Shown here piece by piece: positions 36,017 to 54,965 of a DNA stretch of 64,000 nt. Location: positions 2,335-66,334 of the forward strand of contig CBFHAS010000002.1 of NCBI GenBank assembly GCA_965653625.1, in the 5' to 3' direction. This DNA is from an uncultured Burkholderiaceae bacterium. Lineage in GTDB: Bacteria > Pseudomonadota > Gammaproteobacteria > Burkholderiales > Burkholderiaceae_C. How positions within the stretch are numbered: position 1 is the first letter of the stretch; each line of letters begins with the position of its first letter. Made by a program: the position numbers and the translations under genes. The notes beneath the pieces were generated by a model, which saw only the letters and a program-made list of their open reading frames with translations, searched no databases and was not told where the DNA came from.

Positions 36017-36814
36017 ATGCCCGCCACCGAGTTCTGGCTCGAAGAGATCTGCCGCATCGCGCGCCACGCGGGAGAGGTCGTGATGGCTGTGTACGCGCAC
36101 GATTTCGCGGCGCGGCGCAAGCGCGACGACTCCCCCGTGACCGAGGCGGATGAAGCCGCCGAGGCGCTCATCGTGCCCGCCTTGCAGCAGCTGGCGCCGG
36201 GCCTCTCGGTCGTGGCGGAGGAAGCCGTCTCTGCCGGCCGGGTGCCTGCGATCGGGGCGCGCTTCTGGCTGGTGGATCCACTCGACGGCACGCGCGAGTT
36301 CCTGGCTCGCAACGACGAGTTCACGGTGAACATCGCGCTGGTCGAGCAAGGCGCGCCTGTGATGGGCGTAGTGCATGCCCCGGCCCTGGGCGTGCTCTAC
36401 GCCGGGGGCGCCGGACTCGGCGCCTTCACCGAGGACGCGGCCGGCAGGCGCCCCATCCATTGCCGGCATGAGCCGACTGACGGCGCAACCATTCTGGCCA
36501 GCCGCTCGCATGGCGACCCGGCGGCATTGCAGGCGTTCCTCGCCGGCCACCGGGTAGCCCTGCTGCGCCACATCGGCTCGTCGCTGAAGTTCGGCCTGCT
36601 GGCCGCGGGCGAGGCAGACCTTTATCCCCGCTCCGGCAAAACGATGGAATGGGACATCGCCGCCGGCCATGCGGTGCTCGCCGCAGCCGGCGGCTCGGTG
36701 ACGGATCTCGCCGGCCAACCGATCCGCTACGGCAAGCCCGGCTTCGGCAATCCGCCCTTCGTGGCCCGCGGCTTGGCCAGCATCACGACGGGAGGAAGTC
36801 CACCGGCCACGTGA
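36017..36814 (+). CDS. cysQ: 3'(2'),5'-bisphosphate nucleotidase
   Basis: SPVTEAD, AEE, WLVDPLDGTREF, WDIAAG. Confidence 0.9.
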   Translation: MPATEFWLEEICRIARHAGEVVMAVYAHDFAARRKRDDSPVTEADEAAEALIVPALQQLAPGLSVVAEEAVSAGRVPAIGARFWLVDPLDGTREFLARNDEFTVNIALVEQGAPVMGVVHAPALGVLYAGGAGLGAFTEDAAGRRPIHCRHEPTDGATILASRSHGDPAALQAFLAGHRVALLRHIGSSLKFGLLAAGEADLYPRSGKTMEWDIAAGHAVLAAAGGSVTDLAGQPIRYGKPGFGNPPFVARGLASITTGGSPPAT

Positions 36815-37868: not shown

Positions 37869-38359
37869 GACGCCAGCTTCCTGGTCACAGCGAAGGACAC
37901 GTCGCTGAAGTTGGCCCGCGCGGCCGTGTACATGACCTTGCGAAGCAGCTGGTAGGGGATGTCCTTGTCACCCATGATGGTCACCGCCTTGGTCTGCGCC
38001 TGGTTTTCGGCGCGGATCACCTTGCGGCCGGCCTGCAGGTCGAGCTCGTCCTTGAGCGGCGCGATGAGGTCGCCCGCCGCGGCCATCACCTCGGACACCG
38101 AGGCGACCTTGCGGCCATCGACCACGATGTCGGTCTGGCTGATCATGACGACCACGGTCTCGCGCGGGCTCTTATCGGAGATCGACTGCGGCAGCTTCAC
38201 CGCCTTGGAACTCGGGAGAAGCTCCACGCCCGAGGCGCTGGACAGCAGGAAGAAGATGAGGATCGTGAAGATGTCGATCAGCGCGACCAGGTTGAGGTCG
38301 ACCGCCGACTGGTTGCGCGCGTGCCGCTCGGCGCGCTTTTGCAGCGGAGTGAGCTTCAT
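37865..38359 (-). CDS. ExbD/TolR-family protein (AglS-like)
   Basis: LNLVALIDIFTILIFFLL TM with conserved Asp; IMGDKDIPY. Confidence 0.88.
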   Translation of the reverse strand: MKLTPLQKRAERHARNQSAVDLNLVALIDIFTILIFFLLSSASGVELLPSSKAVKLPQSISDKSPRETVVVMISQTDIVVDGRKVASVSEVMAAAGDLIAPLKDELDLQAGRKVIRAENQAQTKAVTIMGDKDIPYQLLRKVMYTAARANFSDVSFAVTRKLAS

Positions 38360-38362
38360 GCG

Positions 38363-38857
38363 CTACTTCCTGGCGACGGGCGCGTCGCCGATGGAGATAT
38401 CGGGAAACAGCTCGATTTGCGTGACCTTCGGGCCGTTCACCTGCTGCGTCTCGCGTACCGCGTCCATCACCTGCACCAACACGTCGTAGGGCGTGTCGGG
38501 CTGGGCCAGCACGGTGGCGGCCACAGCCTGCGGAAAGCGGGCTTTCACCTGCTGCATGAGCGCAGACAACGCCTTCACGTCATAGCCGCCGGCGGTGTTG
38601 GGAATGCGCTGGATCAGGCCGCCGATGCGGTCGCCCACCTCCAGCGCATCGGGCCGGATCACGATCTCGAGCTTCAGGTCCTCGACCTTCAGTTGCTCCA
38701 CGGCGCCGGACGACTGGGCCGGCAGTGTGAGGTCGAGCACCGCCAGGCGGGTGAACACCGCCGTCGACAGCAGGAACGGCACGAGCACCACGATCAGGTT
38801 GATGAACGCGGTGACTTCGAGCGCCGCTGCGTGTTTGCGCAGGCGTCTGACACGCAT
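38363..38857 (-). CDS. ExbD/TolR-family protein (AglQ-like; TM Asp replaced by Asn)
   Basis: LEVTAFINLIVVLVPFLL TM; PDTPYDVLVQVMDAVR. Confidence 0.85.
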   Translation of the reverse strand: MRVRRLRKHAAALEVTAFINLIVVLVPFLLSTAVFTRLAVLDLTLPAQSSGAVEQLKVEDLKLEIVIRPDALEVGDRIGGLIQRIPNTAGGYDVKALSALMQQVKARFPQAVAATVLAQPDTPYDVLVQVMDAVRETQQVNGPKVTQIELFPDISIGDAPVARK

Positions 38858-38864
38858 GGTCGGC

Positions 38865-39524
38865 TTACCTGCCGGTGGTGGCGGTGGTCTCGGCCTTCAC
38901 GCGCTGCACCAGGTTCAGGAAGCTGATCTTGGCCGCCTCCAGACCGTCGACGATCTCGCTGGTGCGCGCCTGCAGGAAGGAGTGGATCAGCAGGAACGGA
39001 ATGGCCACCATCAGTGCGAAGGCGGTGTTGTTCATCGCGATGGAGATGGACGCCGAAAGCAGCTCCGCCTTCTCGGCCGGGTTGACCTGAGCCACCGCAG
39101 TGAAGCCCTTGATCAGGCCGATGATGGTGCCCAGCAGGCCCACCAGCGTGATCACGTTGGCAAATGTCGCGATGTAGTGCGTACGCCGCTCCAGTCGGGG
39201 CACGATTTCCATCATGCCCTCCTCCATGGCGGCATCGATGTCCTCGCGTCGGCCGGGGCTCTGCATGCGCGTGAGGCCGTTGGCCACGATCTTGCCGATG
39301 GCCGCGTCCGACTCGGAGGCCATGCCCAGCACCTCCTTGAAACGGCCGTTTTGCAGCATCGGCAGCAGCTTGGCCCACAGCTGCCGGTTCTGCGTGCGCG
39401 CCCGGCGCAGGAAGATGAAGCGCTCGATCGCGATGGCCAGGCCGGTCGACATGATGAGCAGGCTGGGGTAGATGAACAAGCCGCTGTCCTGAAAGAACTT
39501 CACGGCGGTCTGGAAGGCATTCAT
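38865..39524 (-). CDS. MotA/TolQ/ExbB proton channel protein (AglR-like)
   Basis: IAIERF; LVGLLGTIIGLI; ISIAMNNTAFAL. Confidence 0.92.
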   Translation of the reverse strand: MNAFQTAVKFFQDSGLFIYPSLLIMSTGLAIAIERFIFLRRARTQNRQLWAKLLPMLQNGRFKEVLGMASESDAAIGKIVANGLTRMQSPGRREDIDAAMEEGMMEIVPRLERRTHYIATFANVITLVGLLGTIIGLIKGFTAVAQVNPAEKAELLSASISIAMNNTAFALMVAIPFLLIHSFLQARTSEIVDGLEAAKISFLNLVQRVKAETTATTGR

Positions 39525-39586
39525 CGCTCACTCTTCTCCAATGACAAGAACTGCTGATTCAAAACACGCTTGCTCGGGACACACAT

Positions 39587-39892
39587 TCACTTGGGCGCAG
39601 GCGCGGGTGGCGCGCCCTGCGTGGCGGGCACGCGCACCAGGGCGTCGTACTGGATCCGGCGGCGAAACACGTCGCGGTCCACGGGCGCCAGCGTCTCATC
39701 GAGCACGCTGTCCACCGGGCGCCCGGCGAGCCCGCCAGGCAGCGGCTTTTTCCACGGCACGATGTAGAGCACCTTCGGCAATTCGCGATTGCCGATGATC
39801 TGCGTGCGATCGATGTCGGCGCGATCCTGGGCCCAGGCCGGGGCGGCCGGCATGAGGGCCGTGAACAGCAGTGCAAGCACGGCGTGCCTCAT
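39587..39892 (-). CDS. Small secreted protein (positional GltF/CglF equivalent)
   Basis: Signal peptide (APAWA); IIGNRELPKVLYIVPWK motif; ATGA-coupled. Confidence 0.7.
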   Translation of the reverse strand: MRHAVLALLFTALMPAAPAWAQDRADIDRTQIIGNRELPKVLYIVPWKKPLPGGLAGRPVDSVLDETLAPVDRDVFRRRIQYDALVRVPATQGAPPAPAPK

Positions 39893-40599
39893 TCCTTTTC
39901 CTTCTGGTTCAGCGCCACGGGGGTCGGCTTGCGGTTGCGCAGGTCAGCCACCCACTTGGAGACGGTGGCATCGCCGCCCGGCGACAAGCTCAGGTAGCGG
40001 TCATACAGGGCGAGTGCGCGCGCGCCATCGCCGAGGTACAGGTCGTGCAGGATGCCGAGGTTGAGCTGCGGCGCGGCGTAGTTCGAGTCCAGCGCGATGG
40101 CTTGCTCATAGGCTTGGCGGGCCTGCGTGAAGCGGCCTTGCATGCGGTACGTGATGCCTAGCTGGTTGAAATAGATCGGCTGCTGTGGGTTGGCCTTCAC
40201 GGCTTGCTCCAGCGCAGCGGCGGACTCATCGAGCCTGCCGGCCTGGCGCAGCAAGAGACCGAGGTTGGCGTGCGGGCCGCCCAGTTCGGGATGCGAGCCG
40301 GCGAGTGCGCGAAAGCCCTGCTCGGCCTGCGCGGTACGCCCGTCGCGCAGGGAGCGAAGCGCATCGTCGTACGCTCGCTGCACGGCCGGCGCCACGGGCT
40401 CCGCGGCAGTGCGCTCAGGCGTCGCCGTGACCGCGGCAGGCGCCGACTCGGCAGCGGCCGACGCGAACTGCCCGACCGGCACCATTTTGTACACGGCGTG
40501 CTTCAGAGCCTCGACCGGCTTGTCTGCGGACGCGCAGCCGACGAGTGCGAGGGCCAGCGCCATCGTCGCGCCGCGTTGTGTGCGTTCAGCGAATCGCAT
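39889..40599 (-). CDS. TPR lipoprotein (GltE/AglT-like)
   Basis: Lipobox LVGC; TPR repeats (NLGLLLRQAG, NQLGITYRMQG, NLGILHDLY). Confidence 0.8.
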   Translation of the reverse strand: MRFAERTQRGATMALALALVGCASADKPVEALKHAVYKMVPVGQFASAAAESAPAAVTATPERTAAEPVAPAVQRAYDDALRSLRDGRTAQAEQGFRALAGSHPELGGPHANLGLLLRQAGRLDESAAALEQAVKANPQQPIYFNQLGITYRMQGRFTQARQAYEQAIALDSNYAAPQLNLGILHDLYLGDGARALALYDRYLSLSPGGDATVSKWVADLRNRKPTPVALNQKEKE

Positions 40600-43405
40600 C
40601 GATCGCCCCCTCGCTGTGTTCGTTCTTGCCGTAACGCACCGGGCGTAGCTCGCGCAACGCAGTGAAGCTGCGTTGCACCCAGGTGTCGTAGATGCCGGCA
40701 GCCGCGCGCCGTGTGTTCACCTCGTGCAGCTCGGTGGCCTTCTCTTCGAACGGGAATGCCTGCTCCTCCAGCAGCACGTCGTACTGCTCGCGTTCCAGCT
40801 TGGACAGCTTCCTCGGCCGCTCGGACGCGAGAAGCGCGCGACCGAAATCCTGGTATAGCGACGCGGTGTGGAAGGTGGCCGCGGTGGTCACGTCAGCCAC
40901 GCCGTAGTCGGCCGCGACGGCGTAGGCTTTGAGCACCTCTTCCATGCGGGTCTTTTTCAACTTGAGCTGGCGCGCCAGGGGTTCCACCAGCGCGACCTTG
41001 CGGTAAGCCTCGAGCGTCGGCGCCGCCATGGCAAGCGCCGCCATGCCTCCCAGATACCGAGTGCGCGGCGTGCGTGCCGCGCCGCCTCGCTGGTCAGCCT
41101 GGAAGACTTCCTTCATCAGGGCCAGCTCGCGTGCGGATTGGCCCTCGGCGTGCGCGAGGCCGGCCAGGCGATAGCGCGCCTCGACCGATCGCTCCAGCGG
41201 CTGCGGGTACTTCTTCGCATAGCTTTCATAGGCGTTCGCCGCCGCGGCTCGCGAACCGCCCTTTTCGTGCAGCTCGGCCGCCTGCCAGAGAGCATCACGC
41301 GCCAGCGTCGCGTCATTACCGGTAGCCGCCAGGCGCTCGAGTTCGCTGGCAGCCTGCGACCACCGGCTTTGCTCCATGTAAGCCAGGGTCAGCTTGTTAC
41401 CTACCTCGCCCTGTAGCGGATGCTGCGGGAAGCGTCGGCGAAAGTCTTCGAGCCTGCGTGCAGCGGCGTCCCAGTCCTTCAGCCCGATGAGCGCGGCGGC
41501 CGCGTCGTACTGCGCCGCGACGCGCACGGCCGACTGCGGGGCGACCTGGCCCACGCGATCGAAATGCCCGACCGCCGTGCGCAACTCTCCTGCCTCGCGT
41601 GCCTTTTCACCCTGCTTGTAGACCGATGCCGCAAGCCGCTCCACCAGCTCGGAGCGACCTTTCTCCTTGTCGTCCCTGAGCGCCAATGCCTCGCCGTAAG
41701 CCTGCTCCGCGCGGTCAAACGTGCCGCGGTCGAAGGCCGTGTGCGCAATCACCGTCCACGCCACGCGGCGCTGTGCCGGCGACGCCTGCGGCTTGATGTC
41801 GAGCACCCGCTGCGCGACCGAGGCGGCTTCGCCGTCATTCATGGCGAAGAGCATCTCGGCTGCACGGGTCAGCACCGCTCCCGCACGAGAGTCGGCCGCG
41901 AAGGCATCGGCAAAGCGCAGCGCACTGGCGACCGCTTCGCGCTGCTGCGCGGGAAGATCACCGGCCGCGGCGCGCCTTTCCTGCTGCGCATGGGCGAGCA
42001 ACGCGGAGTAGCCTGCGTCGGCGCTGCGTGCGTGCGCGGGGTAGCCGTAGGCCGTCTTTTCGTACTCGGCGATGGCCTCGGCAAACCGCTGGTTCTCGAA
42101 CAACAGCTCGGCGAGGAGGAAGTTGTTGTGCGGCGCGTCGCCATCGTTGGGGAAGGACTCCAGCCAGGCGCGGTACCAGCGCACCGCCTCCTCGACATCG
42201 GCGCTGCTCCTGCTCTTTTGCGCAGTGGCGTGGCTGTGGCGCGCCAGCTCCGCCAGCTGCGTCTTGACCAGCGGTTGCGCGCGCCCCCAAGCCTGCGGAT
42301 TGGCGCGGCGGAAGTCACTGGCGATGCCGTAACGCACCACGTATTCCTTCTTGGCATCGAGGGCCAGCGTGCCGAACCCGGCCTGCTGGTAAATCTCGAT
42401 GACGCGCGTCTGCAGTTGGGGCGCCCGCTCGTGCAGCGGATGCTCGCGTGCGAACAAGGCAAAGGTGTCGGCCGCGTCCTTGACACGCTCCTGGCGCAGG
42501 TACAGCTCGCCGAGCTGCTCGTACACGCGGAACTCGTAGCTGCGCCTTTGCGGGCTGTCCATGTACGGGGCGATGGACGCCGCGCCTTGCAGGTTGGCCA
42601 GGCACAGGCTGGAGACGCGGAAGGTGTCCTCCACCAGCTCGCGGTCGGCGCGCGTGAGGCCCTTCAGGGTATCGAATCCGCCCTCGCCTTCGCGGTCAGC
42701 GACCTTTCGGTCCAGCACACCGAGGAAGGAGTGCAGCGCATCCTCCAGCCGGCCCTGTTTGAACAACGACCAGCCGTGCATGTACAGCGCGCGCTCGTGA
42801 TACGGGTTGCCGCTGTCGCCCTTCAGCACGGTGGCGTACGCCTGTTCGGCCTTCGCGTAGGCACGCATGGCAAACAGCAGCTCGCCGCGGCGGAAATGAG
42901 CCTCGTCGCCATGGTGAGTCGCCGGGTACTGGGCCACCAGCCGGTCGAGAGTTGCCAGCGCGGGTTCCAACTGGCCGCCTTGCTCGTGCGCGCGGGCCAG
43001 CTGATAGAGCACTCGATCGTTGGCCGGATTTTGCGGATAAGCCTTGAGGTATTCCTCGTAGCGCGCGATGGCGGCACGGTAGTCGGGGCCCGAGCCGGCA
43101 GCATCGCTGGCGCTCTGCCGGTCGGCACTGTCCATCTCGAGGTCCGCAATGCGGCGCATCGCATCGGCGCGCTGCGGCGCATGCGGCGCCACTTCGAGGA
43201 ACTTGCGATACGCGGCGATGGCCTGTTCCTCGCTGGGCGCGATGCCCGGATCCGGCTCCACCTTCACGCTGCGGCCTTCCAGAGTCTTGAGTGTGGGCGG
43301 CTCCGGCGGGATGGCGTTGCGCTTGCTGGCGCAGGCCGCCAGCCCGCACGCCACCATCACCGCGAGCAGCGCGCGGCCGGGGCTACTGGGGCTGCTGCGT
43401 CGCAT
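40586..43405 (-). CDS. Large TPR lipoprotein (GltD/AgmU-like)
   Basis: Lipobox LAAC; many TPR-like helical repeats; C-terminal LEEQAFPFEEKA. Confidence 0.8.
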   Translation of the reverse strand: MRRSSPSSPGRALLAVMVACGLAACASKRNAIPPEPPTLKTLEGRSVKVEPDPGIAPSEEQAIAAYRKFLEVAPHAPQRADAMRRIADLEMDSADRQSASDAAGSGPDYRAAIARYEEYLKAYPQNPANDRVLYQLARAHEQGGQLEPALATLDRLVAQYPATHHGDEAHFRRGELLFAMRAYAKAEQAYATVLKGDSGNPYHERALYMHGWSLFKQGRLEDALHSFLGVLDRKVADREGEGGFDTLKGLTRADRELVEDTFRVSSLCLANLQGAASIAPYMDSPQRRSYEFRVYEQLGELYLRQERVKDAADTFALFAREHPLHERAPQLQTRVIEIYQQAGFGTLALDAKKEYVVRYGIASDFRRANPQAWGRAQPLVKTQLAELARHSHATAQKSRSSADVEEAVRWYRAWLESFPNDGDAPHNNFLLAELLFENQRFAEAIAEYEKTAYGYPAHARSADAGYSALLAHAQQERRAAAGDLPAQQREAVASALRFADAFAADSRAGAVLTRAAEMLFAMNDGEAASVAQRVLDIKPQASPAQRRVAWTVIAHTAFDRGTFDRAEQAYGEALALRDDKEKGRSELVERLAASVYKQGEKAREAGELRTAVGHFDRVGQVAPQSAVRVAAQYDAAAALIGLKDWDAAARRLEDFRRRFPQHPLQGEVGNKLTLAYMEQSRWSQAASELERLAATGNDATLARDALWQAAELHEKGGSRAAAANAYESYAKKYPQPLERSVEARYRLAGLAHAEGQSARELALMKEVFQADQRGGAARTPRTRYLGGMAALAMAAPTLEAYRKVALVEPLARQLKLKKTRMEEVLKAYAVAADYGVADVTTAATFHTASLYQDFGRALLASERPRKLSKLEREQYDVLLEEQAFPFEEKATELHEVNTRRAAAGIYDTWVQRSFTALRELRPVRYGKNEHSEGAIDAIR

Positions 43406-45293
43406 CACTGGGGTTCCTTGCCAGGCTGGCGCGGTCGTAGAGCTGCGCCACGGCGAAGCGCGCCTGCATGGCGTACACCGCGAGTCGCTCCTTCTGGTGG
43501 GTGAGTTCGGCCACGGCGATGTCTTCCACTGCGCGCTGCTGTTCAGCCACAAGCGTGGTCACTTGAGGGATGAGGGCCTGGACGCGCCCGTTGAGTTGGG
43601 CGATGCGCCGTCCGAAGGCATCGAAGCGCGCCGGCTCGTCGCGCTGCGCCTGCACGAGCGCCGCATCGCGGCTGCGGGCCTCGGCCAATTGCCGGTCCAC
43701 GATGTCCATGTCCTTCTTCGCGGCCCAGGCGCGTGCCGGGAAGTCCTGCGCCAACTGCCACGTGAGCACGCCGGCGGCGACACGGGCATGCTGGCGAGCA
43801 TCACCGTAGTCGGGCTGGTTTCCGAGCCTCGCAAGCGTTTCCCTCACACCGGCCAGCCGGGCCATCAACGCGCGCTCGCGCTCGTTGGCGAAAGCCAACC
43901 CGGTGGCGGTGCTCATGGCTTCGGAGAATTCGCTGGCCAGCGCGTTGCGGCGCTGCTCCAACCCGGCGATGCCGCGCGTGCTGTCCTTCGCGCCTGCCAG
44001 CACCTGCGGCAGACGCTCGGTATAGGCGTGGCGGCGGTTGTCGAGCATGTCGACGAAGACCGCGAGTTGCTCGTCCCAATGCGCCAGGTTGCGGCCCAGG
44101 AAACGCAAGTCGCGCAGGTTCTTGAACGACTCCTGGAACTCGTGCTGCGCGAGTACCTGGGCCAGATGGCCGGCGTAGGGCATCTCGGGCAAGACGCGCA
44201 GCGCCCACGCCTGGCCGGCGTTGTCGCCTGGGTTGCGCTCCAGCAGACCCTCCACCAGCTTGCCGGCGCGGATGGCGGCGATGGATTCATCGAGCTGAGC
44301 GCTCTCTCGCTCGAACAGCGTGATCGCGTCCTGGTATCGCGCGAGCGACTGCCCGTAGGCGCCCAGCTCGGCATAGGCGTAGGGCACCGCGATGCGCGCT
44401 TCGAGCACCGCGGCGTCGGAGCCGTCGCGGTCGAGAAGCTCCATCCAGGGCACCAGGGCCAGCTTGGGCTGGTGCAGCGAGGCAGCGGCCCAGCCGAAGC
44501 CGAGCAGGGCCTTGTTCGAATCCATGGCAGACAAACGCACGCGCGACAGTGCGTGGCGCGCCGCCTGCGGACGCTGATCCTGCAGCGCGGCGAAGCCGAG
44601 CGCGACATTGGCGCGGTCTCGCAGGCTGCGGAACTCCTCGACCGGCATGTGGGCTGGCGTGGGCGAGCCGCCCAGCTCATCGAGCATGGCCGTGCCTCGC
44701 TCGGCGTCGCCGCTGCGCACGAGCGCCACGCCGAGGTTGAAGCGGGCATACCAGGTGGCCTTGGCTTGCTGCGCCATGCCGTTCAGCACGCCGGCGGCAC
44801 CGGCATGGTCGCCGCGCGCCATGAGCAGGTTGGCGTGCAACAGCGCGCGCTCCTCTTCCAGTTCGCCGGGCAGAACGCCGTCGATGCGCGCCAGCGCATC
44901 GACGGCCTCAGCGTCGAAGCCGCGCTGGTAGCGGATCTTGGCGAGGAAAAACCAGGCGCGGTTGCGCACCGAGGGCACTGCCCCTTTGTCGATGAGCTCG
45001 GCGAAGATGCGGCCCGCTTCGCGGTGCAACCCGTACGACAGCAGCATGCCGCCGCGCAGCAACTCGGCTTCGTCGGCATGCAACACGACGCGGCCGAAAT
45101 GCTGCGAGGCCATCAGGGTGGTGATGGCGGTGAAGTGGCTGTCCTGGAAGAAATGGAACAGCGTGTCGCCGTAATGGGGCTCGCGCACCGGCTGCGGCGC
45201 CGGCCCGGCAGAAGGCTCGGCCTGCACGCCGACGGCGCATAGCCCGGCCGCCGCGGCCAGCACTGCGTGGCGGAGAAAGCGGTGCAGGCGCAT
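43383..45293 (-). CDS. Periplasmic TPR / coiled-coil protein (GltC-like)
   Basis: Signal peptide (GVQA); TPR-like N-half; coiled-coil C-half. Confidence 0.75.
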   Translation of the reverse strand: MRLHRFLRHAVLAAAAGLCAVGVQAEPSAGPAPQPVREPHYGDTLFHFFQDSHFTAITTLMASQHFGRVVLHADEAELLRGGMLLSYGLHREAGRIFAELIDKGAVPSVRNRAWFFLAKIRYQRGFDAEAVDALARIDGVLPGELEEERALLHANLLMARGDHAGAAGVLNGMAQQAKATWYARFNLGVALVRSGDAERGTAMLDELGGSPTPAHMPVEEFRSLRDRANVALGFAALQDQRPQAARHALSRVRLSAMDSNKALLGFGWAAASLHQPKLALVPWMELLDRDGSDAAVLEARIAVPYAYAELGAYGQSLARYQDAITLFERESAQLDESIAAIRAGKLVEGLLERNPGDNAGQAWALRVLPEMPYAGHLAQVLAQHEFQESFKNLRDLRFLGRNLAHWDEQLAVFVDMLDNRRHAYTERLPQVLAGAKDSTRGIAGLEQRRNALASEFSEAMSTATGLAFANERERALMARLAGVRETLARLGNQPDYGDARQHARVAAGVLTWQLAQDFPARAWAAKKDMDIVDRQLAEARSRDAALVQAQRDEPARFDAFGRRIAQLNGRVQALIPQVTTLVAEQQRAVEDIAVAELTHQKERLAVYAMQARFAVAQLYDRASLARNPSDATQQPQ

Positions 45294-45298
45294 CGCGG

Positions 45299-45898
45299 CT
45301 ATTGCCACACTTTGACGTCGAACTCGGGCTGCAGCTTGCCGGCCGAATCTTTGATGCGCAGCTCGATGTACTTCGGATCGGTTCCCTTGTCGAAGCGCAT
45401 CGTCGCACCGCGCTTGTAGTCACGCGTGTGCGGCCCCCGGCCAGTGAAGAAGGCCACGAGCTCATGCGCGCCCGCCTTCAGGTTGCCCAAGTACAGGCGC
45501 TGCACGCCACCTCGATGCAGTGCCTGCACTTCCAGCGGTGTGTAGAGGTAGTTGGCCACCACCTTGTCATCGAGCTTGACCTGCACGGAATCCAGCTCGA
45601 AGAGCTTGCCCACGTCCATGGAGACGAACACCGCCACCTGCGTGCCGGCGGGAAACAGAAGCTCCTCTTCCAGCACCAACAGGTCGCGGTTGAGCTTGAT
45701 GACGTCGGCCTTGGCGTCCTGGACGCGCGTGTCGAGGCCGGTGCGCGAATCGGGCGCGCTGGCCGCCGAAGCGGCGGAGGCGGGCGAGGCGGGTGCCGCC
45801 ACCGCGGTCGGCGCTGCATCCGCGGCCTGCGCCAAGGGTGACCACGCAAAGCCGGCGAAGAGCATCGCGGCGAGGATCAAACGGCATCGAGTCAGCAT
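45299..45898 (-). CDS. Conserved secreted hypothetical protein
   Basis: Signal peptide (LAQA), Ala-rich linker, coiled coil LNRDLLVLEEELLFP, beta-rich C-terminus. Confidence 0.75.
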   Translation of the reverse strand: MLTRCRLILAAMLFAGFAWSPLAQAADAAPTAVAAPASPASAASAASAPDSRTGLDTRVQDAKADVIKLNRDLLVLEEELLFPAGTQVAVFVSMDVGKLFELDSVQVKLDDKVVANYLYTPLEVQALHRGGVQRLYLGNLKAGAHELVAFFTGRGPHTRDYKRGATMRFDKGTDPKYIELRIKDSAGKLQPEFDVKVWQ

Positions 45899-45912
45899 GG
45901 GAGCACTCTGTG

Positions 45913-47073
45913 TCAGTAGGTCGCCGTCACGTACAGCTGGAGCACGTTGGCATTGAACGAATAGGGCTTTCCGCTGCGAACGTCGGTGAAGTCCTTGTAG
46001 CGAAAGTTCACCAGCTCCCATGCGCCGTGCGCCTTGAGCTCGTACCGGCCCGGCACGCGCTTCCAGTCGTACGAAAGCTTGGCGCCCAGCCCGGTGCTGG
46101 TGAACGTGCTGAGCTGCCGGTTGCGCGTGACGTAGAGCGTCTCCGCGGTGGCGTTGTCGCTGTAGAACAGGGCCTTGTCCTGCGTGTGCAACCGCAGCGT
46201 GGCATCGCCCAGCCAGCGCTCGCGGAAGTAGCGGCGGTAGCCGGCCTCCAGGGTGTGCGCCTTGATATCCCAGTTGTCCCAGAAATAGCGGTACTGGCCA
46301 TGCAGCGCGTCGCGCGAGCCCAGGTCGAACGCGGTGCGCAGCGAGAGGGCCCGCGACGAGCGCGTGCGCGGCAGCCGCTCCGGAACGGCGGCCCCGAAAA
46401 CACGCGCCACACGGTAGGGGCTGCCGAGGAAGCCGTCGTCGGCGATCACCTCGAAGTTCGCGCTCATGAGCCAGCGCGGCGTGAGGATCTGCGTGGCACC
46501 GAGGCGGTACTGCCAGTGCTTCACGTTGTCGAAGAAGCCGGGCGTGCCTTTCTGGCCGACCTTGTCGCTGGAGCGGGTGAAGCCCAGCGTCACGGTGGTC
46601 ATGCCGCCGAAGGTCTCCTGGCTCACATCGACACCGGCGCTCGAGACTTGGTAGTCGGGCTCCCGGCTGGTCGATGCCGACAGCGTGATCTGCGAATCGC
46701 GCACCACGTAGTCGGCGGCGAGGCCGTACTCCGTGCGTGTCTCCTTGTACGGGCTGGCGGTGGTGACTACGTCGATGGAGGCGCTGCTCACCGCATCGAC
46801 GTAGTACGACCCCGACAGCGAGACCTTGTCAGCCAGGCTCTTGCGCACCAGCAGCGCGGGGCCCGCGGCGGTGAGCCCGCCTCCCTTGTAGACGTGCAGC
46901 ATCGCCTCGCCGCTGTCCTCGGGCAGCGTCACTGCGCGGCCCGTGCCCGCGGCCAGCACGCCACCGAGCACTCCGGCAATCTTGGCCATGCCCGCATACG
47001 GCACCCGGCCCAACACCGCGCCGAGCCGGCGCCACGCGCGCAAGACGCCGACGCAGAGGCTACTTGCACCCAC
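45913..47073 (-). CDS. DUF3570-family predicted outer-membrane beta-barrel
   Basis: VDAVSSASIDVVTTASPY, SREPDY, alternating amphipathic strands, terminal aromatic residue; GTG start overlapping DUF4266 end inferred. Confidence 0.8.
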   Translation of the reverse strand: MGASSLCVGVLRAWRRLGAVLGRVPYAGMAKIAGVLGGVLAAGTGRAVTLPEDSGEAMLHVYKGGGLTAAGPALLVRKSLADKVSLSGSYYVDAVSSASIDVVTTASPYKETRTEYGLAADYVVRDSQITLSASTSREPDYQVSSAGVDVSQETFGGMTTVTLGFTRSSDKVGQKGTPGFFDNVKHWQYRLGATQILTPRWLMSANFEVIADDGFLGSPYRVARVFGAAVPERLPRTRSSRALSLRTAFDLGSRDALHGQYRYFWDNWDIKAHTLEAGYRRYFRERWLGDATLRLHTQDKALFYSDNATAETLYVTRNRQLSTFTSTGLGAKLSYDWKRVPGRYELKAHGAWELVNFRYKDFTDVRSGKPYSFNANVLQLYVTATY

Positions 47074-47302
47074 AGCCGCCTCCTTGCACGCCGGAACCAC
47101 CGCGCGATGCCTCACGCACGTCGCGCACGTGTTCACGATGCTTGTCGGGCAGCGCGGCGCCGCTGCCGAACTTCATGATCGGATCGGCCAGGCGCTCGCG
47201 CTCATATGGCTTGACCCAGGGCTCGATAGAGGCGCAGCCCCCCAACCCACAGGCCATGATGAGCGCCGCCAGCCGCGCTGCGATGAGGATGCGTGAGTTC
47301 AT
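47060..47302 (-). CDS. DUF4266-family small lipoprotein
   Basis: Lipobox LGGC, VKPYERERLADPIM, C-terminal GGGCGCK. Confidence 0.85.
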   Translation of the reverse strand: MNSRILIAARLAALIMACGLGGCASIEPWVKPYERERLADPIMKFGSGAALPDKHREHVRDVREASRGGSGVQGGGCGCK

Positions 47303-47814
47303 TCCTTCAGCAAGTCCCGGATCTGCTGCTCATAGGTCTGCTCCATGCCTTCGCGGTAGCCGCGGTGCAGGAAACGTGCGCGTCCATCGCGGTCGATGAG
47401 CACGGTGGCCGGCATGGCGCTCAAGTCGTACAGCCGGCTCACGCGCTTGTCGGTGTCCAGCAGCACAGGGAACTTCAGGCCGAGCCGCAAAGCCAGCTCG
47501 GCGGCAGCCTTCGCGTCCTCGTCGATGTTCACGCCCAGCAGCACGAAACCCGAAGGCCGGTACTTCTCGTACAGACGATTCAGATGCGGCATCTCCTGCC
47601 GGCAAGGGCCGCACCAGGTGGCCCAGAAGTTGACCAGCACCACCTGCCCGCGCTGCTCCTGCAAGCGCAGGTTGGGCCCGTCCACGCGGCGCAGCGTGAA
47701 GTCTGGCGCGGCAGCGAACAGCGCGACAGCGGACATCGCCGCCGACGCGCCAGCCGCCAGCGTGGCAGCCAGCAACGCGCGAGCGGCGCGGCGCAGGACG
47801 CATCGGTACGTCAT
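47299..47814 (-). CDS. TlpA/ResA-family thiol-disulfide oxidoreductase
   Basis: VNFWATWCGPC, cis-Pro AMPATVLID, N-terminal export signal. Confidence 0.92.
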   Translation of the reverse strand: MTYRCVLRRAARALLAATLAAGASAAMSAVALFAAAPDFTLRRVDGPNLRLQEQRGQVVLVNFWATWCGPCRQEMPHLNRLYEKYRPSGFVLLGVNIDEDAKAAAELALRLGLKFPVLLDTDKRVSRLYDLSAMPATVLIDRDGRARFLHRGYREGMEQTYEQQIRDLLKE

Positions 47815-47826
47815 CGTGGGCTCCCT

Positions 47827-48486
47827 TCAGAAGTAGTACGACAGCCCGGACGTCAGCTCCAGGTTCTGCGTGGTCTGCCGCCTGCCGAGCAGGTCGAGCG
47901 AGTAGATGTGGTCGCGCATGTCCACCTGCACCGACCAGCGATCGGCCAGCATGAGGCGCACGCCGAGGCCAAAGTTGAAGGTGTGCCGACGCTGCTCGAT
48001 GAAGCGTGTGCTGCCCACGCCGCCCATCAGATAAATGGCAGTGGCCTTGGCGCGATTGCTGCCGATGAAAACTTCGCCAGGCAGCACGTTGTAGCCGGCG
48101 GAGAAGTTGTAGTAGGTCAGCTTCTCCTTGGGACGTGTGAACACGCCGCCCGGCAGGATCTGGCGGAAGTTCTCGTCGCTCACGCGAGTCTGCGCCAGCG
48201 TGGCCTGCACGAAGATGTCTTCGCTGATGTGGTAGCCCAGGCGCATACCCGCCACCGCGCTGGACCCGAAGTTCTCTGTGGCGTAGGTTCCGGCAAACAG
48301 GCCGACCTCGATGTCCTTGGAGGGAAAGCGTGGCAGCGGGATCTGGCGCCGCTCGACTTGCGGCTGGATCACCTGATCGCCGGCGGGCTGCGGGGCCTGC
48401 TGAGCCAGCGCGGCGGCCGGCGCGATGGCGACGGCCGCCAGGAGAGCAGCGGCGAAGAGCGAGTCGACGGATGTCTTTGGGGTCAT
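47827..48486 (-). CDS. Outer-membrane beta-barrel protein (GltA/B/H-like OMP family)
   Basis: Signal peptide (ALA), about 8 amphipathic strands, C-terminal SYYF. Confidence 0.8.
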   Translation of the reverse strand: MTPKTSVDSLFAAALLAAVAIAPAAALAQQAPQPAGDQVIQPQVERRQIPLPRFPSKDIEVGLFAGTYATENFGSSAVAGMRLGYHISEDIFVQATLAQTRVSDENFRQILPGGVFTRPKEKLTYYNFSAGYNVLPGEVFIGSNRAKATAIYLMGGVGSTRFIEQRRHTFNFGLGVRLMLADRWSVQVDMRDHIYSLDLLGRRQTTQNLELTSGLSYYF

Positions 48487-48495
48487 GGTCGTCGG

Positions 48496-49281
48496 TCAGA
48501 AGAAGAACGCGAGTCCGGCCGTGAAGGCCTTGAACTCGCTGCTGCGCGTGTCGGCCACAAAGGCGGTGTAGAAGGAGTAATCAGCGCGCAGCACGAAGCG
48601 CTCGGTGAGATGCCAGCGCAGCCCGATGCCGGCGTGAGCCAGCTTCGCGTCTGTGGGCAGCGCGCCCACGAGGCTCAGGTTCGGCACATTGCGGAACCTG
48701 CCGAAGCCCACGCCGAAGAAGGGCGACAGCCGCCGGTCGGACCACGGCTCGGACACGAGTCCGACATGCCAGAAGTCGCTGCCCGAGTACAAGCCCTGCA
48801 CCTGGCCCAGGTCGCCTTCGAGGCTGAGCGTTTCAGACACGCGCCAGCCGGTCCAGAGCTTGAGCATCGGCTTGGCATCGAAGCGGCCCCACGCGACGCC
48901 GAACTGCACCTTGCGGCCCAGGTAGTCGTCGAGCATCACGTCGCGGAAGGTCTTGGTGCCGCCTGCCTCCGTGAGCGTGGTTTCGAGCTGATGGCGATGC
49001 ACCCAGCCGACCTTGCCGCCCGCTGTGCGGACCTTGTACCAGTCGGTGTGGCGCAACTCGACCTCGATCCACTCAGAACGTGCGGCCACGAAGAAGACGG
49101 GGTAGCCGCGTCCCGGCCCGGTGCGAAGCTCGATGTACGGATCGGTGACTTGCAGTCTTTCCAGCGCCGGCTCGGCGGCACGCGAGGGCATGGCGGCCAA
49201 GGCACACCAGCCCAGGAGCAAGGCCGCCAGGATGCGCGGCACGGTGCCCCACAGGGTCATGAGCGAGGGCTGAAGTCTCAT
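48496..49281 (-). CDS. SH3b domain + outer-membrane beta-barrel protein
   Basis: IELRTGPGRGYPVF...WYKVRTAGGKVGWV (SH3b), then barrel ending LAFFF. Confidence 0.8.
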   Translation of the reverse strand: MRLQPSLMTLWGTVPRILAALLLGWCALAAMPSRAAEPALERLQVTDPYIELRTGPGRGYPVFFVAARSEWIEVELRHTDWYKVRTAGGKVGWVHRHQLETTLTEAGGTKTFRDVMLDDYLGRKVQFGVAWGRFDAKPMLKLWTGWRVSETLSLEGDLGQVQGLYSGSDFWHVGLVSEPWSDRRLSPFFGVGFGRFRNVPNLSLVGALPTDAKLAHAGIGLRWHLTERFVLRADYSFYTAFVADTRSSEFKAFTAGLAFFF

Positions 49282-49907
49282 TGGGTGTTGCAAGCCCCGT
49301 TGGACGTGAACATGGCGCTGCTGCCGGCGCTGCTGAACTCATCCTGGCCCTGCCCCACCGGATGCGTGATCCAGTACTGGATCAGCCGGGCATTCGGGTC
49401 TTGCGTGCTCTCGAAGATGAGCCCGCCCCCGTGCAACACCTGCATCACCAGCGGCTTGGTGAGAAGCCGGCTCTGCAGTGGCGTGCCCACGAGCACCGAG
49501 CCGCGCGCCGAGTAGTAGTTCTTGTACATGTCGGTCGCACGGATCGCCTCTGGCGTGTTCGCCGGGTCATCCACATCGACTTCGGCAGCCGCCGGAATGA
49601 CCCGGAAGGCGCCGCCGGTGCCGGTGGCGTTGTCATGGCAACCCGAGGAGGCACATGTGTTGGTGGACACCACACCCCCCTGTTGGATCTGCAACTGGGC
49701 CAGGAAGATCGGGTTGATGCACTTCTGGAAGTACACGAACGACAGCGACTGGCCCGTGATGCTTCCCGGGTTCTCGACCAGCGGAGGGTTGTCCAGCGGG
49801 TTCGAACCCGAGCCGCCACACGCGGTCAGCGCGAGCGCGAGTGCGGCCACGCCGAACGTGTGTCGCAGGGCAAGCGCACCGCGACGCCTCAGACGAAGGA
49901 TCGGCAT
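49278..49907 (-). CDS. Putative c-type heme lipoprotein (CX4CH)
   Basis: Lipobox LTAC; INPIF...TCASSGCH...SRLLTKP...LHGGG...IQYWI. Confidence 0.7.
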   Translation of the reverse strand: MPILRLRRRGALALRHTFGVAALALALTACGGSGSNPLDNPPLVENPGSITGQSLSFVYFQKCINPIFLAQLQIQQGGVVSTNTCASSGCHDNATGTGGAFRVIPAAAEVDVDDPANTPEAIRATDMYKNYYSARGSVLVGTPLQSRLLTKPLVMQVLHGGGLIFESTQDPNARLIQYWITHPVGQGQDEFSSAGSSAMFTSNGACNTQ

Positions 49908-49909
49908 GG

Positions 49910-52900
49910 TCAGGGGCAGCCTCCCTGGATCCAATTGAAGATGGTGGTGTAGCTGGCACTGCCCGCCGGCAGCACGGCAGTGCCCTGCCCCTGCGCGCCC
50001 GCGGGATGCGGCACCGTGGACGGACGCGATAGCAATGAATTAGACCCCGCATTGCACGCGTCGTTGATCATCGTCAGCGTGACGTTGTAGTCACCTTCCG
50101 GGTCACCGGTCAGCACGAAGCGGTTGTTGTTGAACGACGTGCCCGCCGCCACGCCATCGGCACCGCTGCCCACAGCCTGGTGGCAGCCCGACGCGCAGGT
50201 GCTGCGCAAGATGGGGAACACCTGCGAGTTGAATGTCGTCTCGCTGAGTCCGCTGATGGTGAGCACGCCGTTGCCGGGGCTCATCGGGTCGTTGTAGTAC
50301 TGCCCACCCAGATCCATCCACTCGGCGAGAAGGCGCTTCTCGGCCGCGTTGAGCATGGTCGCGTGATTCGGCGCGCCAGCCGGCGGATTTGGATGCGCTT
50401 CGAATGCGTCTGCGCCGGTCATGAGCCGCTCGCCGAAGAGGATTTCGGTGAGCCGGCTCTTGCGCGCCAAGCCCACGGCATCTCCTTCGCTGGCTTCGGT
50501 GCTCACGAGCGCCGGGCCGCGCTCAACCACCGGCACGCCGTCTTCGATGCGGGTGCGCGGCAGGCCGGTGTCGGTGTCGATCACCGGATCGCCCAACAGC
50601 AGTTCCTCATAAGAGGTGAGCCGGCCGGTGCCGGCCACGCCATTGCGCAGATCAAGCTTGGCCGGGTCGTTGTGGCACGCGGTGCAGGTGTTGGCGCCAC
50701 GGTTGCGCGCCCACAGGGGCTGGATGTGCTCGGGGTAGTTGATGATCCCGTTCACCGGCACCGCTGTGGCCAGGTCGTCAGCGGCGTTCGCGTTGCCGGT
50801 GTAGCGCAGAGAAATGGCGGTGCGCGCGGTGACGCCAGGCTTGGCGGTGTCGGCCCAACGATCGGTCCACAGCAGGTCGGCGAGACGGTTCAGCGCCGTG
50901 GGATCGTCCCGCGTCAGCGTGGAAGCCATTGTTTCGCCGGAACGATGCTTGGAGGCCATGGCAGCCAGCCAGCCTTCAGGCACGTTGTTCACGATGGCGC
51001 CGGAGTTCAGCGCAGCCCCGCGACGCGGGCTGTGGCAACCGTCGCAGGTGCGCCGCTCGCCGGGGCGCACCTGGATCCAGTTGGTGTGGGTCTGGAAGGC
51101 GCGACCTTTTTCGTCGATGACCGCCAGCGCGATCGGCACGTCGGCCGGCACCTTCAGCTTGAACGACCCATCGGGCTCGATGGGCATGTAGCCAAGGATC
51201 TGCTGCATCTCGAAGTCGGTTTCGCCAATGGCGCGACGCAGTCCCATGCTGCCGGACGGTGGAGCCACCGCGCGGGTGACGCGCACGAAACGCGCAGGCG
51301 CGCAGCGATAGGCCGGATCGGCCGGGTTTTTCATGCGCACCAGATCAGCCACCAGCGGCCTCGTGTCCAGCGTGTCGCTCGGGGCGATCTTGGGGATGGC
51401 GGTAGTGCAGCCCGGCGCGAGGTCGGCCGCTGTCAGCACTGGGTCACCCATGCGCCCGAGGCCATCGGTGTCGTAAACGCTGCGAACTTCGAGCAGGCCC
51501 TCGTTTGCGGTAGCAAGGTCGTCGTCGATTTGGGTCGGGTCGACCACGTTCGGCTCGTCGCGCGCCAGCAGCGCGACCGGGTCGGTGTACATGTACTCGG
51601 ACCCGCCGGGTGTCGCCACCGGACGCCACTTCTTCTCTGCCGGGTCGAACATGTAGATTGCGTAGGCGGGCGGCGCGGTGTCCTGCAGTTCATCGGCCTG
51701 CGCCTCGGCACGCGAGCGGTTTCGGTTGGAAAGCCTCGCGAGTTCATCATCGGTGAGTTCGGCGCAGGGAATCACGTCGCCATTGCGCGTGACTTCACAG
51801 GGCCGGAACGCTGCGAGCACACGGTCGGTGCCGTCCCACAGCGGGTACGGGGTGGTGACGCGCCCGAAGCGCGACAGCCCCCGCCCGATGCTCAGTTGCT
51901 TCTCGGGCTCTGTGGGCTGCGACTGGCCGCCCTGCGCCGGCACGAGCGAACTGCTCGGCGTGTTGTGCTCCGAGTAGTTCGCAACGTCGACGAACACCAG
52001 CGCGCCGCCCTCCCTCGTGCCCGACAGCGGCATGAGGTCCGACGACACGAAGCCTTTGTACTGACCCTTGGGATCCATGTCGCGCGGATGCAGGAAGCTG
52101 TTGCCTTCGCTGTGCGCGCCGTACAGCACAAACATGTCGGTGCCATCGGGCTTCACGCGGAAGATCTTGAAGTGGTTGCGCCCGCCGACGTGATCCCAGC
52201 GCGAGAACATGATGTCACCGTTGGGCCTCACCACCGGGTTGCGGTCGTGGCTCTGGTTCACCGAGATCTGAACGATGTTGCCGCCATCGGCATCCATGGT
52301 GTGCAGGTTCATCACCCGCTCGCGCTCGTATTCATCGAGCGCGAAGTAGGTGCGGTCCAGCGCCTGCTTGCTCGACTGCAGCTGACGGTTCGACGTGAAC
52401 ACGAAGCCGCGCCCACCAGGAAGATAGACCGGGTCGGCGTCGTCGTCCTGCGTGGAGTGCGTCAGGCGGCGGAACGTACCGTTGGCCAGGTCGCTGTCGG
52501 TGGTGTCGTATTCCCAGATATTCCATCGCCCGGTACAGGCAGGCTGCCCTTCGATGGTGGACGTGTTGTCCGTCGGGCATCGCATGGCGAAGACGATTTT
52601 CTTGCCGTCGTACGACACCTCGGGGTCGGAGGCGTCTCCTTTACCCTGCGTGAAGCGCTCGGTGATGTTGATCTCCGGCGCGCTGGGCGAGGACTTCTCC
52701 CGAATGATGAGGTCACCGCCGGGCGCGGTGGGTGCGCCGTTGGTGGGATTCGCCTCGATTTCGGTGGATCGCTTCACATAGGCGATGGGCACATCGCCCT
52801 GCACCGTCACTTCGCCACTGCCGCTGCCGCAGCCCCCCACGGCCCCGACGAGCGTGGCTACGGCCAGTGCGAACGCACCCCTGCCTCCGATGTATTTCAT
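49910..52900 (-). CDS. Hydrazine synthase alpha-like lipoprotein: PD40/TolB propeller + HZS-alpha-like middle domain + cytochrome c domains
   Basis: Lipobox VGGC; PD40-like repeats (DPEVSYDGKKIVF, DPVYLPGGRGFVFTS, NPVVRPNGDIMFSRWDH); PIEPDGSF...VPAD...WIQVRPGERRTCDGCH; CTACH; CASGCH. Confidence 0.78.
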   Translation of the reverse strand: MKYIGGRGAFALAVATLVGAVGGCGSGSGEVTVQGDVPIAYVKRSTEIEANPTNGAPTAPGGDLIIREKSSPSAPEINITERFTQGKGDASDPEVSYDGKKIVFAMRCPTDNTSTIEGQPACTGRWNIWEYDTTDSDLANGTFRRLTHSTQDDDADPVYLPGGRGFVFTSNRQLQSSKQALDRTYFALDEYERERVMNLHTMDADGGNIVQISVNQSHDRNPVVRPNGDIMFSRWDHVGGRNHFKIFRVKPDGTDMFVLYGAHSEGNSFLHPRDMDPKGQYKGFVSSDLMPLSGTREGGALVFVDVANYSEHNTPSSSLVPAQGGQSQPTEPEKQLSIGRGLSRFGRVTTPYPLWDGTDRVLAAFRPCEVTRNGDVIPCAELTDDELARLSNRNRSRAEAQADELQDTAPPAYAIYMFDPAEKKWRPVATPGGSEYMYTDPVALLARDEPNVVDPTQIDDDLATANEGLLEVRSVYDTDGLGRMGDPVLTAADLAPGCTTAIPKIAPSDTLDTRPLVADLVRMKNPADPAYRCAPARFVRVTRAVAPPSGSMGLRRAIGETDFEMQQILGYMPIEPDGSFKLKVPADVPIALAVIDEKGRAFQTHTNWIQVRPGERRTCDGCHSPRRGAALNSGAIVNNVPEGWLAAMASKHRSGETMASTLTRDDPTALNRLADLLWTDRWADTAKPGVTARTAISLRYTGNANAADDLATAVPVNGIINYPEHIQPLWARNRGANTCTACHNDPAKLDLRNGVAGTGRLTSYEELLLGDPVIDTDTGLPRTRIEDGVPVVERGPALVSTEASEGDAVGLARKSRLTEILFGERLMTGADAFEAHPNPPAGAPNHATMLNAAEKRLLAEWMDLGGQYYNDPMSPGNGVLTISGLSETTFNSQVFPILRSTCASGCHQAVGSGADGVAAGTSFNNNRFVLTGDPEGDYNVTLTMINDACNAGSNSLLSRPSTVPHPAGAQGQGTAVLPAGSASYTTIFNWIQGGCP

Positions 52901-52940
52901 GGTTCCCCTCAACTGTTCCGATTCGACGAGCGAGTCGCGT

Positions 52941-53936
52941 TCATGCCGGTTTGGCTGGCGCGGCGGCCAGCAGCCCGGACGAGTAATGCAGTTCTCCAGC
53001 AGCGTCGACCACGACAGCGTCGACTCCCTCCAGCGACTCCACGAGCCGCATTCCTTGTTCGACGCCCAGCACGAACACCGTCTTCGACATCGCCTCGGTG
53101 GTCAGGCCGTCGGCGGCGACGATGGTCACGCTGTGCACGCCCGACGGTGACTTGCCCGTCTTCGGGTCGATGAGGTGATGGCACCGCTCGCCGTTCACCT
53201 CGAAGTAGCGCTCGTAATCGCCTGATGTGGAGAGGGCCAGGTCTTCGAGCGGCAACATGGCCACGACCTCTCCTTCCCGCCGCGGATGGCGGATGCCGAT
53301 GGTCCAAGGCCGGCCCCGCCGGTCGCCAATCACACGGCTGTCGCCGCCGGCAGTCACGATGGCATGGGCAATGCCACGTCGGCGCAAGATGGCCGCACCC
53401 ATCTCCACCGCATGGCCCTTGGCGAAACCGCCGAGATCGATGCGAACACCTTCGCGGGCGAAACGAACGCTGCGGTGCCGAGGATCGAGCTCCAGGTGTC
53501 GCCAGCCGACGGCGTCGCGGGCGCGTGCCAAAGCGTCTTCAGTCGGCCGCACGCCTTGCCGGTAGTCGTACAGCTGGCCGGCACTCGCAAAGGTGATGTC
53601 GAACGCGCCACCCGACAGACTCGAGAATTCGATGGCGCAGGCCAGCAGGTGGAAAAGTTCCTCGCTCACCGGTACCGGCGCGGCGGCGGCCTCGCGGTTG
53701 ATGCGGGAGAGATCCGAGTCGGGCCTGAATGGGCTCATGGCGCGGTCGATGCGGTGCATCTCGGCCATGACCGCATCGATGGCCGCCTCTCCGGCCGGGC
53801 GATCCTCGCTCCACAGCTCCACGCGGATGGCGGTGCCCATGATCGCCTCGTCGCGTGCGAGCCAACCGGCCTCTGCACGGGCGCGAGAACCACTCGAACC
53901 GGCGTGCGGCGCCGGCGCCAGGAACCCGAAGCGCAT
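52941..53936 (-). CDS. apbE: FAD:protein FMN transferase
   Basis: MGT, IDLGGFAKG, AGGD, STSGDYERYF, HHLIDPKTG. Confidence 0.93.
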   Translation of the reverse strand: MRFGFLAPAPHAGSSGSRARAEAGWLARDEAIMGTAIRVELWSEDRPAGEAAIDAVMAEMHRIDRAMSPFRPDSDLSRINREAAAAPVPVSEELFHLLACAIEFSSLSGGAFDITFASAGQLYDYRQGVRPTEDALARARDAVGWRHLELDPRHRSVRFAREGVRIDLGGFAKGHAVEMGAAILRRRGIAHAIVTAGGDSRVIGDRRGRPWTIGIRHPRREGEVVAMLPLEDLALSTSGDYERYFEVNGERCHHLIDPKTGKSPSGVHSVTIVAADGLTTEAMSKTVFVLGVEQGMRLVESLEGVDAVVVDAAGELHYSSGLLAAAPAKPA

Positions 53937-54964: not shown

Positions 54965-54965
54965 C

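Follow-up and report, generated by a model that had tools for sequence, protein, structure and literature searches.

A predicted DUF3570 outer-membrane barrel with tandem glycine-less acceptor-type motifs, a probable substrate of its operon's ApbE in an uncultured Burkholderiaceae bacterium

DUF3570 proteins were described as substrates of ApbE by Meheust et al. 2021 (eLife 10:e66878), who sought the substrates of ‘orphan’ ApbE genes (PMC8238504). ApbE-associated DUF3570 proteins carry two conserved [S/T]GA[S/T] motifs, and the Chlorobium luteolum protein (ABB24424.1) is flavinylated on co-expression with its cognate ApbE (ABB24423.1), its flavin signal being abolished only when both serines are changed to alanine. 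The typical cluster of what are called ‘DsbD systems’ combines ApbE and DUF3570 with a thioredoxin-like protein and DUF4266, a small protein that is secreted and ends in CxC; some clusters adjoin DsbD and 316 do not. The paper mentions no barrel, no outer membrane for DUF3570, no hydrazine synthase (HZS) and, in the DUF3570 context, no TonB (PMC8238504); its supplements yielded no match to the accession of the C. luteolum protein, to HZS/PF18582 or to the names of relatives. In a later review and a 2024 preprint, the motif is written D-x-x-[S/T]-G-A-[S/T], and changing Asp to Ala is reported to have little effect. Here we analyse a 64,000-nucleotide stretch of DNA from an uncultured Burkholderiaceae bacterium (GCA_965653625.1, contig CBFHAS010000002.1, positions 2,335 to 66,334; hereafter, the window), which encodes a DUF3570 protein with two abutting acceptor-type motifs that both lack the glycine.

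Our analysis indicates that this protein is probably an outer-membrane barrel that is modified by the ApbE of its own operon and takes part in a thiol-to-flavin relay. The gene and its motifs are located as follows.

45913..47073 (-): DUF3570 protein, predicted outer-membrane beta-barrel; 386 amino acids (aa) from GTG 47073, or 358 aa from ATG 46989
46753..46797 (-): tandem flavinylation-type motifs D114-A-V-S-S-A-S120 / I / D122-V-V-T-T-A-S128, from translation

The longest open reading frame (ORF) over the site on the minus strand, 45913..47136, has a translation that contains GSYYVDAVSSASIDVVTTASPYKETR and reads LSGSYYVDAVSSASIDVVTTASPYKETRTEYG in the motif region. Translation reproduces exactly the DAVSSAS / DVVTTAS tandem that an earlier note on this DNA had reported: D114 is codon 46797-46795 and S128 is codon 46755-46753, the interval 46753-46797 being exactly the 15-residue tandem, and the predicted acceptors of flavin mononucleotide (FMN) are S120 (codon 46777-46779) and S128 (codon 46753-46755). 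GTG 47073 is suggested as the true start because a 94%-identical homolog has 386 aa, and the overlapping upstream gene fits this choice; ATG 46989 is the alternative. A second numbering, which counts from M50, gives D65, A70, S71, D73, A78 and S79 in the motifs. The protein matches the Pfam family DUF3570 (PF12094) with 115.4 bits against a cut-off of 25 (E 3.6e-33), begins with a signal peptide (hydrophobic N-terminus) and ends in Tyr (...TATY); the FMN_bind domain (PF04205) has no match in it. A plus-strand ORF (45793-47178, 461 aa) also covers the gene. Antisense open frames are common in high-GC DNA; we took this one as such, the Pfam match sitting on the minus frame.

The relaxed pattern D..[ST][STGN]A[ST] is low in information and occurs 53 times in 3.9 million residues (all open frames of the genome of at least 150 aa), which could suggest that a Ser/Thr/Ala-rich protein encoded by high-GC DNA matches it by chance. 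Tandems of two copies no more than 20 residues apart, however, are found only twice genome-wide, in the window DUF3570 and in one other frame, when about 0.01 such tandems are expected. All 120 close homologs (62-94% identity, Burkholderiales) retain the tandem as S[N/S]AS followed by [TS][TS]AS, and 120 homologs at 36-44% identity, gammaproteobacterial wherever the source is named (Thiodiazotropha, Lysobacterales, Steroidobacteraceae), have [ST]SAS at the first site and mostly VVTTAS at the second. Of 12 window-type loci belonging to other families of the class, 11 also keep the tandem. In a 98-sequence alignment, D65, A70, S71, D73, A78 and S79 (M50 numbering) are invariant and the eight best-conserved of 344 15-residue windows all overlap the motif; across 98 to 120 sequences, A119, S120, D122, A127 and S128 are invariant or nearly so. 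A segment that is the best conserved of its protein down to 36% identity, and that aligns with canonical acceptor sites (below), contradicts a chance origin, which we regard as almost certainly wrong.

Comparison of a window-type profile with 17 canonical-type DUF3570 proteins from other genomes of the class, using hhalign, gives a probability of 100% (E 2.5e-41) and places DAVSSAS (D114-S120) on the canonical DTLTGAS and VVTTAS (V123-S128) on TFT[ST][PA]S. In the window type the two sites abut, their spacer having nine residues fewer. Among representatives of clusters at 50% identity, site 1 reads [ST]-[G/S/N/A]-A-S, with canonical SGAS common, and site 2 reads TTAS, TQAS, SYAS, TYGS, or [ST]GAS with a one-residue insertion; the subfamily usually lacks Gly, with mainly S/N (also G/A) at site 1 and T/S/Q/Y at site 2. 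By sequence, the window protein is a member of a divergent DUF3570 subfamily with both acceptor sites at the positions of the family, and the missing Gly is best explained as the normal state of this subfamily, which has its own ApbE lineage.

The same comparison bears on how many of the sites are used. Only S120 might be flavinylated, with DVVTTAS kept for packing against the flavin or binding it, a sub-case of the reading that we propose. Site 1 is canonical SGAS in several subfamily members, whereas site 2 has the full motif only with the one-residue insertion (IDVITSGAS) and otherwise takes the four variant forms listed above; moreover, site 2 of the canonical type, T-[ST]-[PA]-S-G, is itself far from the ApbE motif. 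On the other side stand the near-invariance of A127 and S128 across those 98 to 120 sequences and the C. luteolum protein, in which both serines had to be changed for flavin to be lost (PMC8238504). We consider use of one site alone a minority possibility. That at least one of the Gly-less sites carries flavin appears probable, and flavinylation of both is slightly favoured.

One homolog has lost both acceptor sites. At locus L103 (G023:C12), positions 8049-8939 encode a DUF3570 protein with NDDS and LAGG in their place (EQVNDDSVDLLTLAGGPY). Also missing there are DUF4266, an HZS-alpha-like gene and an ApbE close by, but the small barrels, TlpA and the tetratricopeptide repeat (TPR) genes are kept; we count it as a correlated loss, as both motifs are gone together with partner genes.

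An AlphaFold2 model (m69eff548b1a0), built on the 98-sequence alignment, forms a 16-strand barrel with a mean predicted local distance difference test (pLDDT) score of 89.2 and a predicted template modelling (pTM) score of 0.83. Foldseek matches the model to the PelB, CymA, FadL, OmpG and AlgE barrels, with E about 1e-8 to the first four. The barrel named in the earlier note is borne out by this model, which together with the signal peptide and C-terminal aromatic residue supports a closed antiparallel beta-barrel with a predicted location in the outer membrane. In M50 numbering, the first heptad (65-71) lies at the end of strand 3 (56-69) and the second (73-79) inside the 11-residue connection 70-80. 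The pLDDT falls below 50 at residues 72-77, which would be expected for a cofactor loop modelled without its cofactor.

In outer-membrane barrels, the N-terminus is usually periplasmic and the short turns face the periplasm. By this rule, connection 70-80 would be loop 2, on the outer or lumenal side. Structure prediction had been suggested in the earlier note as a way to see whether the motifs lie in the barrel lumen; the model places them at the end of strand 3 and in loop 2, with the choice of outer or lumenal side coming from the topology rule only. The conservation of loop 2 is 0.97, compared with a protein average of 0.63, and the presumed outer or lumenal connections (loop 1, 1.0; loop 2, 0.97; loop 3, 0.72; loop 6, 0.75) are on average better conserved than the presumed periplasmic turns (0.37-0.76). 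This is the reverse of the usual pattern in outer-membrane proteins. A conserved loop 2, unusual for a surface loop, fits a functional site.

The operon holds all four genes of the Meheust 2021 signature (ApbE, DUF3570, a TlpA-like thioredoxin and DUF4266). The genes upstream of DUF3570, all on the same strand, are listed here.

47060..47302 (-): DUF4266 lipoprotein, 80 aa; PF14086 E 3.8e-19; lipobox LIMACGLGGC; C-terminal GGCGCK (CxC) tail
47299..47814 (-): TlpA/ResA-like periplasmic thioredoxin (WCGPC); Redoxin and AhpC-TSA E 3.4e-28; ResA/TlpA NCBIfam matches
47827..48486 (-): small outer-membrane beta-barrel, OMP_myx_plus type; TIGR04565 E 4.2e-40; PF13505
48496..49293 (-): SH3 domain and outer-membrane beta-barrel protein; SH3_3 E 3e-8; weak OMP_b-brl match
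49278..49934 (-): small lipoprotein, 218 aa, with one CX4CH haem-type motif (CASSGCH), from a motif scan
49910..52912 (-): lipoprotein, about 1000 aa, whose middle domain is of the hydrazine-synthase-alpha type; PF18582 E 9.7e-20
52941..53936 (-), ORF to 53978: ApbE (FAD:protein FMN transferase; FAD, flavin adenine dinucleotide); PF02424 E 1.8e-82; probable start ATG 53936

The DUF4266 gene, between the TlpA-like gene and DUF3570, was not listed in the motif finding of the earlier note. The HZS-alpha-like lipoprotein has three haem-type motifs in a motif scan (CDGCH, CTACH and CASGCH, the last a CX3CH), and its gene is always found beside window-type DUF3570 modules. The CX3CH spacing is unusual for haem attachment, as is the CX4CH of the 218-aa lipoprotein, a protein with conserved synteny in 69 of 80 related loci.

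These 80 related loci, all Burkholderiales, were found with an alignment of closer homologs, and distant loci were gathered by separate searches. Gene order is the same in all 80 as far as each contig reaches: ApbE, HZS-alpha-like, 218-aa protein, SH3-barrel, barrel, TlpA, DUF3570, a 240-aa protein, three TPR proteins and ExbB. Culturable relatives carry the cluster as well, for example Piscinibacter aquaticus KACC 15278 and Caldimonas caldifontis (loci L056 and L071). ApbE is present in each of the 52 Burkholderiales loci with enough upstream flank. The module of HZS-alpha-like, SH3-barrel, barrel, TlpA, DUF4266 and DUF3570 genes recurs in 16 loci from other families, 11 of which have ApbE at varying positions within the cluster: upstream of the HZS-alpha-like gene in 3, directly after DUF3570 in 6, divergent in 1 and 6 kb away in 1. 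In an even sample of 401 genomes of the class, ApbE occurs in 90 of 91 DUF3570-positive genomes versus 176 of 309 genomes without DUF3570 (Fisher p 8.7e-18). A maximum-likelihood tree puts the ApbEs linked to window-type DUF3570 and those linked to the canonical type on opposite sides of a branch whose support is 100/100.

One bin, L009 (CAVVYW010000006.1), labelled ‘uncultured Solirubrobacterales’ (Actinomycetota), carries the full Burkholderiales-type cluster on a 1.07-Mb contig at 65-87% protein identity. Its taxonomic label looks wrong.

The genome as a whole, which is 96% complete, contains exactly two ApbEs and two DUF3570 paralogs. The earlier note had seen no FMN_bind protein in the window, and this holds for the whole genome, in which searches for FMN_bind, NqrB/RnfD and DUF2271 found none. 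Within the operon, the other proteins were considered as ApbE substrates and ruled out, as a motif scan found no motif-like heptad in any exported one. The second DUF3570 system is on contig C19 (L007, 6-8943) and comprises a TlpA-like protein, DUF4266, DUF3570 (P0122) and ApbE: the same families as in the window, with the first three genes in the same order and an ApbE of its own. Its DUF3570 is 23% identical to that of the window and, in contrast to the Gly-less motifs there, has canonical motifs, VSGAS and ISGAT, seven residues apart. The C19 ApbE is separated from DUF3570 by four polysaccharide-degrading genes (GH5 cellulase, GH6, Cip1-like and pectate lyase).

The claim that the operon's ApbE modifies DUF3570 on the final Ser of both motifs, already made in the earlier note, is supported by the published experiments on the family (PMC8238504) and, at this locus, by the homology of the sites, the near-invariant serines, the linkage of ApbE, the 90/91 co-occurrence and the lack of any other known substrate family. 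The central idea is not new, because DUF3570 flavinylation was published by Meheust et al. 2021 (PMC8238504); our data support the window protein as a motif-variant member of this known ApbE/DUF3570 system. Like the published clusters, the locus has the same Pfam family, two positionally homologous sites near the N-terminus and the same four-gene signature, and its DsbD is encoded elsewhere, as in the 316 clusters noted above. Unlike in the published clusters, Gly is replaced at both sites and the spacer is the shorter one; the thioredoxin is of the TlpA/Redoxin type and not PF13899; ApbE lies at a distance of six genes, forms a lineage apart and lacks a signal peptide; and the module is flanked on one side by an HZS-alpha-like haem lipoprotein and two small barrels and on the other by a core complex of the Agl-Glt type.

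Several observations weigh against flavinylation as we propose it. Neither site has the strict motif D-x-x-[S/T]-G-A-[S/T], the protein having SSAS and TTAS. In one mutational study, Gly-to-Ala cuts flavinylation to about 50% (PMC12052999), and the subfamily has S, N or T at this position. Site 2 is more degenerate than site 1 across the family. ApbE was not found within the retrieved region in 5 of the 16 distant loci. The operon ApbE (52941-53978) shows no hydrophobic signal peptide or lipobox by N-terminal hydropathy, no dedicated predictor such as SignalP having been run, whereas in 10 of 11 distant ApbE orthologs a clear signal peptide is present, its end falling just ahead of the same Trp. 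Its N-terminus, MRFGFLAPAPHAGSSGSRARAEA-GWLARDEAIMGT, follows the clade pattern M-x-F-G ... G-W-x-x-R-[DE]-E-A-I-M-G-T, and its maximum 12-residue hydropathy before the conserved GW..R[DE]EAIMGT is 1.1, compared with 2.0-2.8 in exported neighbours. The Burkholderiales clade and L093, joined in one group by the ApbE tree, share the loss of the signal peptide, and the C19 ApbE likewise has none, while both DUF3570 substrates are exported. Either the modification takes place on the unfolded precursor in the cytoplasm, or ApbE is exported by an unrecognised signal.

The departure from the strict motif, the lack of an export signal in the clade ApbE and the distant loci without a nearby ApbE would also suit a relic, in which the segment is kept for folding or for another ligand and carries no covalent flavin, ApbE serving another unrecognised substrate or role. 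Yet the Ser and Ala of the acceptor pair never vary, while small polar residues replace one another at the former Gly position; ApbE remains linked to DUF3570, even relocating beside it, and a dedicated ApbE lineage follows the subfamily. In addition, no other operon protein bears the motif, no other known substrate family is encoded in the genome, and the locus with true motif loss, L103, lost its partners too. We judge such a relic distinctly unlikely.

In the mechanism that we propose, the operon ApbE would use FAD to link FMN by a phosphoester bond to S120 of DAVSSAS and S128 of DVVTTAS, placing a covalent flavin pair in the 16-strand barrel where strand 3 ends and along loop 2. The flavin-loaded barrel would exchange electrons with the TlpA-like thioredoxin and the CxC lipoprotein DUF4266, forming a thiol-to-flavin relay in the envelope. 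Both thiol partners may be fed by a DsbD encoded elsewhere; the sole DsbD of the genome (a DsbD_TM match) is on contig C32, outside the window. The relay would most likely serve the co-conserved HZS-alpha-like lipoprotein with its three haem-type motifs. The data establish the family, the homology and conservation of the sites, the gene linkage, the fold as a model and the lack of another known substrate family in the genome; that Gly-less sites are modified, which way electrons flow, and what redox partner and role are involved, we infer. The earlier note had suggested that a doubly flavinylated barrel would be a flavin-based route for electrons across the outer membrane. With sites eight residues apart on one loop, two flavins alone are not shown to span the membrane, and a conduit would need further carriers.

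This arrangement resembles the classical FMN_bind substrates (NqrC, RnfG, NosR and PplA) and NqrB/RnfD in the predicted phosphoester-linked FMN on the last Ser/Thr of D-x-x-[ST]-x-A-[ST] and in its setting outside the cytoplasm. It differs from them in that DUF3570 has neither an FMN_bind nor an NqrB/RnfD fold and that its sites are on a loop of a predicted outer-membrane barrel. A functional analogy, with no homology claimed, may be drawn to MtrCAB-type porin-cytochrome conduits, in which an outer-membrane barrel is also tied to redox cofactors and haem proteins; the window barrel is 16-stranded rather than 26-stranded, and its predicted cofactors are covalently attached to the barrel itself.

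The co-oriented genes downstream of DUF3570 provide context outside the motif finding.

36783..45898 (-): a 240-aa exported protein, three TPR proteins (641, 988 and 236 aa), an ExbB/AglR-like, two ExbD-like and a TonB/GltG-like protein; Pfam and NCBIfam matches and synteny

By sequence matches and synteny, this set corresponds to the Agl-Glt ‘core complex’, which Luciano et al. 2011, in a paper that mentions neither ApbE nor thioredoxin, described in Gamma- and Betaproteobacteria as a conserved unit without known function (PMC3169522). The window-type DUF3570 module often directly adjoins an Agl-Glt-type core complex across many families of the class; we see this adjacency in the window (36783-53978, -) and at loci L089, L092, L094-L098, L100, L101 and L103. 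A literature search found no paper connecting the two, and the supercluster of HZS-alpha-like gene, DUF3570 module and Agl-Glt core complex has no description in the papers searched. Just past ApbE, divergent ORFs at 54176-55634 (+) resemble, by their translation only, the ABC ATPase and membrane protein of cytochrome c maturation (CcmA/CcmB-like).

In a joint reading of these neighbourhoods, which we hold to be fairly unlikely, a conserved supercluster that includes the HZS-alpha-like protein, the two small barrels and the Agl-Glt motor would have the Gly-less DUF3570, together with its dedicated ApbE lineage, as its redox element in the outer membrane. The flavin pair of loop 2 would then pass electrons between a thiol relay (TlpA, then the CxC arm of DUF4266) and the haem lipoprotein, at or across the outer membrane, and the ApbE of this clade would modify the still unfolded precursor in the cytoplasm, ahead of its Sec export.

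As to annotation, a fitting name for the gene is ‘predicted ApbE-flavinylated DUF3570 outer-membrane barrel’, and its operon can be placed under the ApbE/DUF3570/thioredoxin/DUF4266 system, to which our analysis adds a predicted position of the sites on a highly conserved barrel loop. If confirmed, the large natural set of Gly-less acceptor sites in this subfamily would widen the accepted ApbE motif, and two DUF3570 paralogs in one genome, each with a linked ApbE, offer a clean setting for the study of enzyme-substrate specificity. The set of partners, an HZS-alpha-like haem protein and an Agl-Glt core complex, could give function to two orphan systems.

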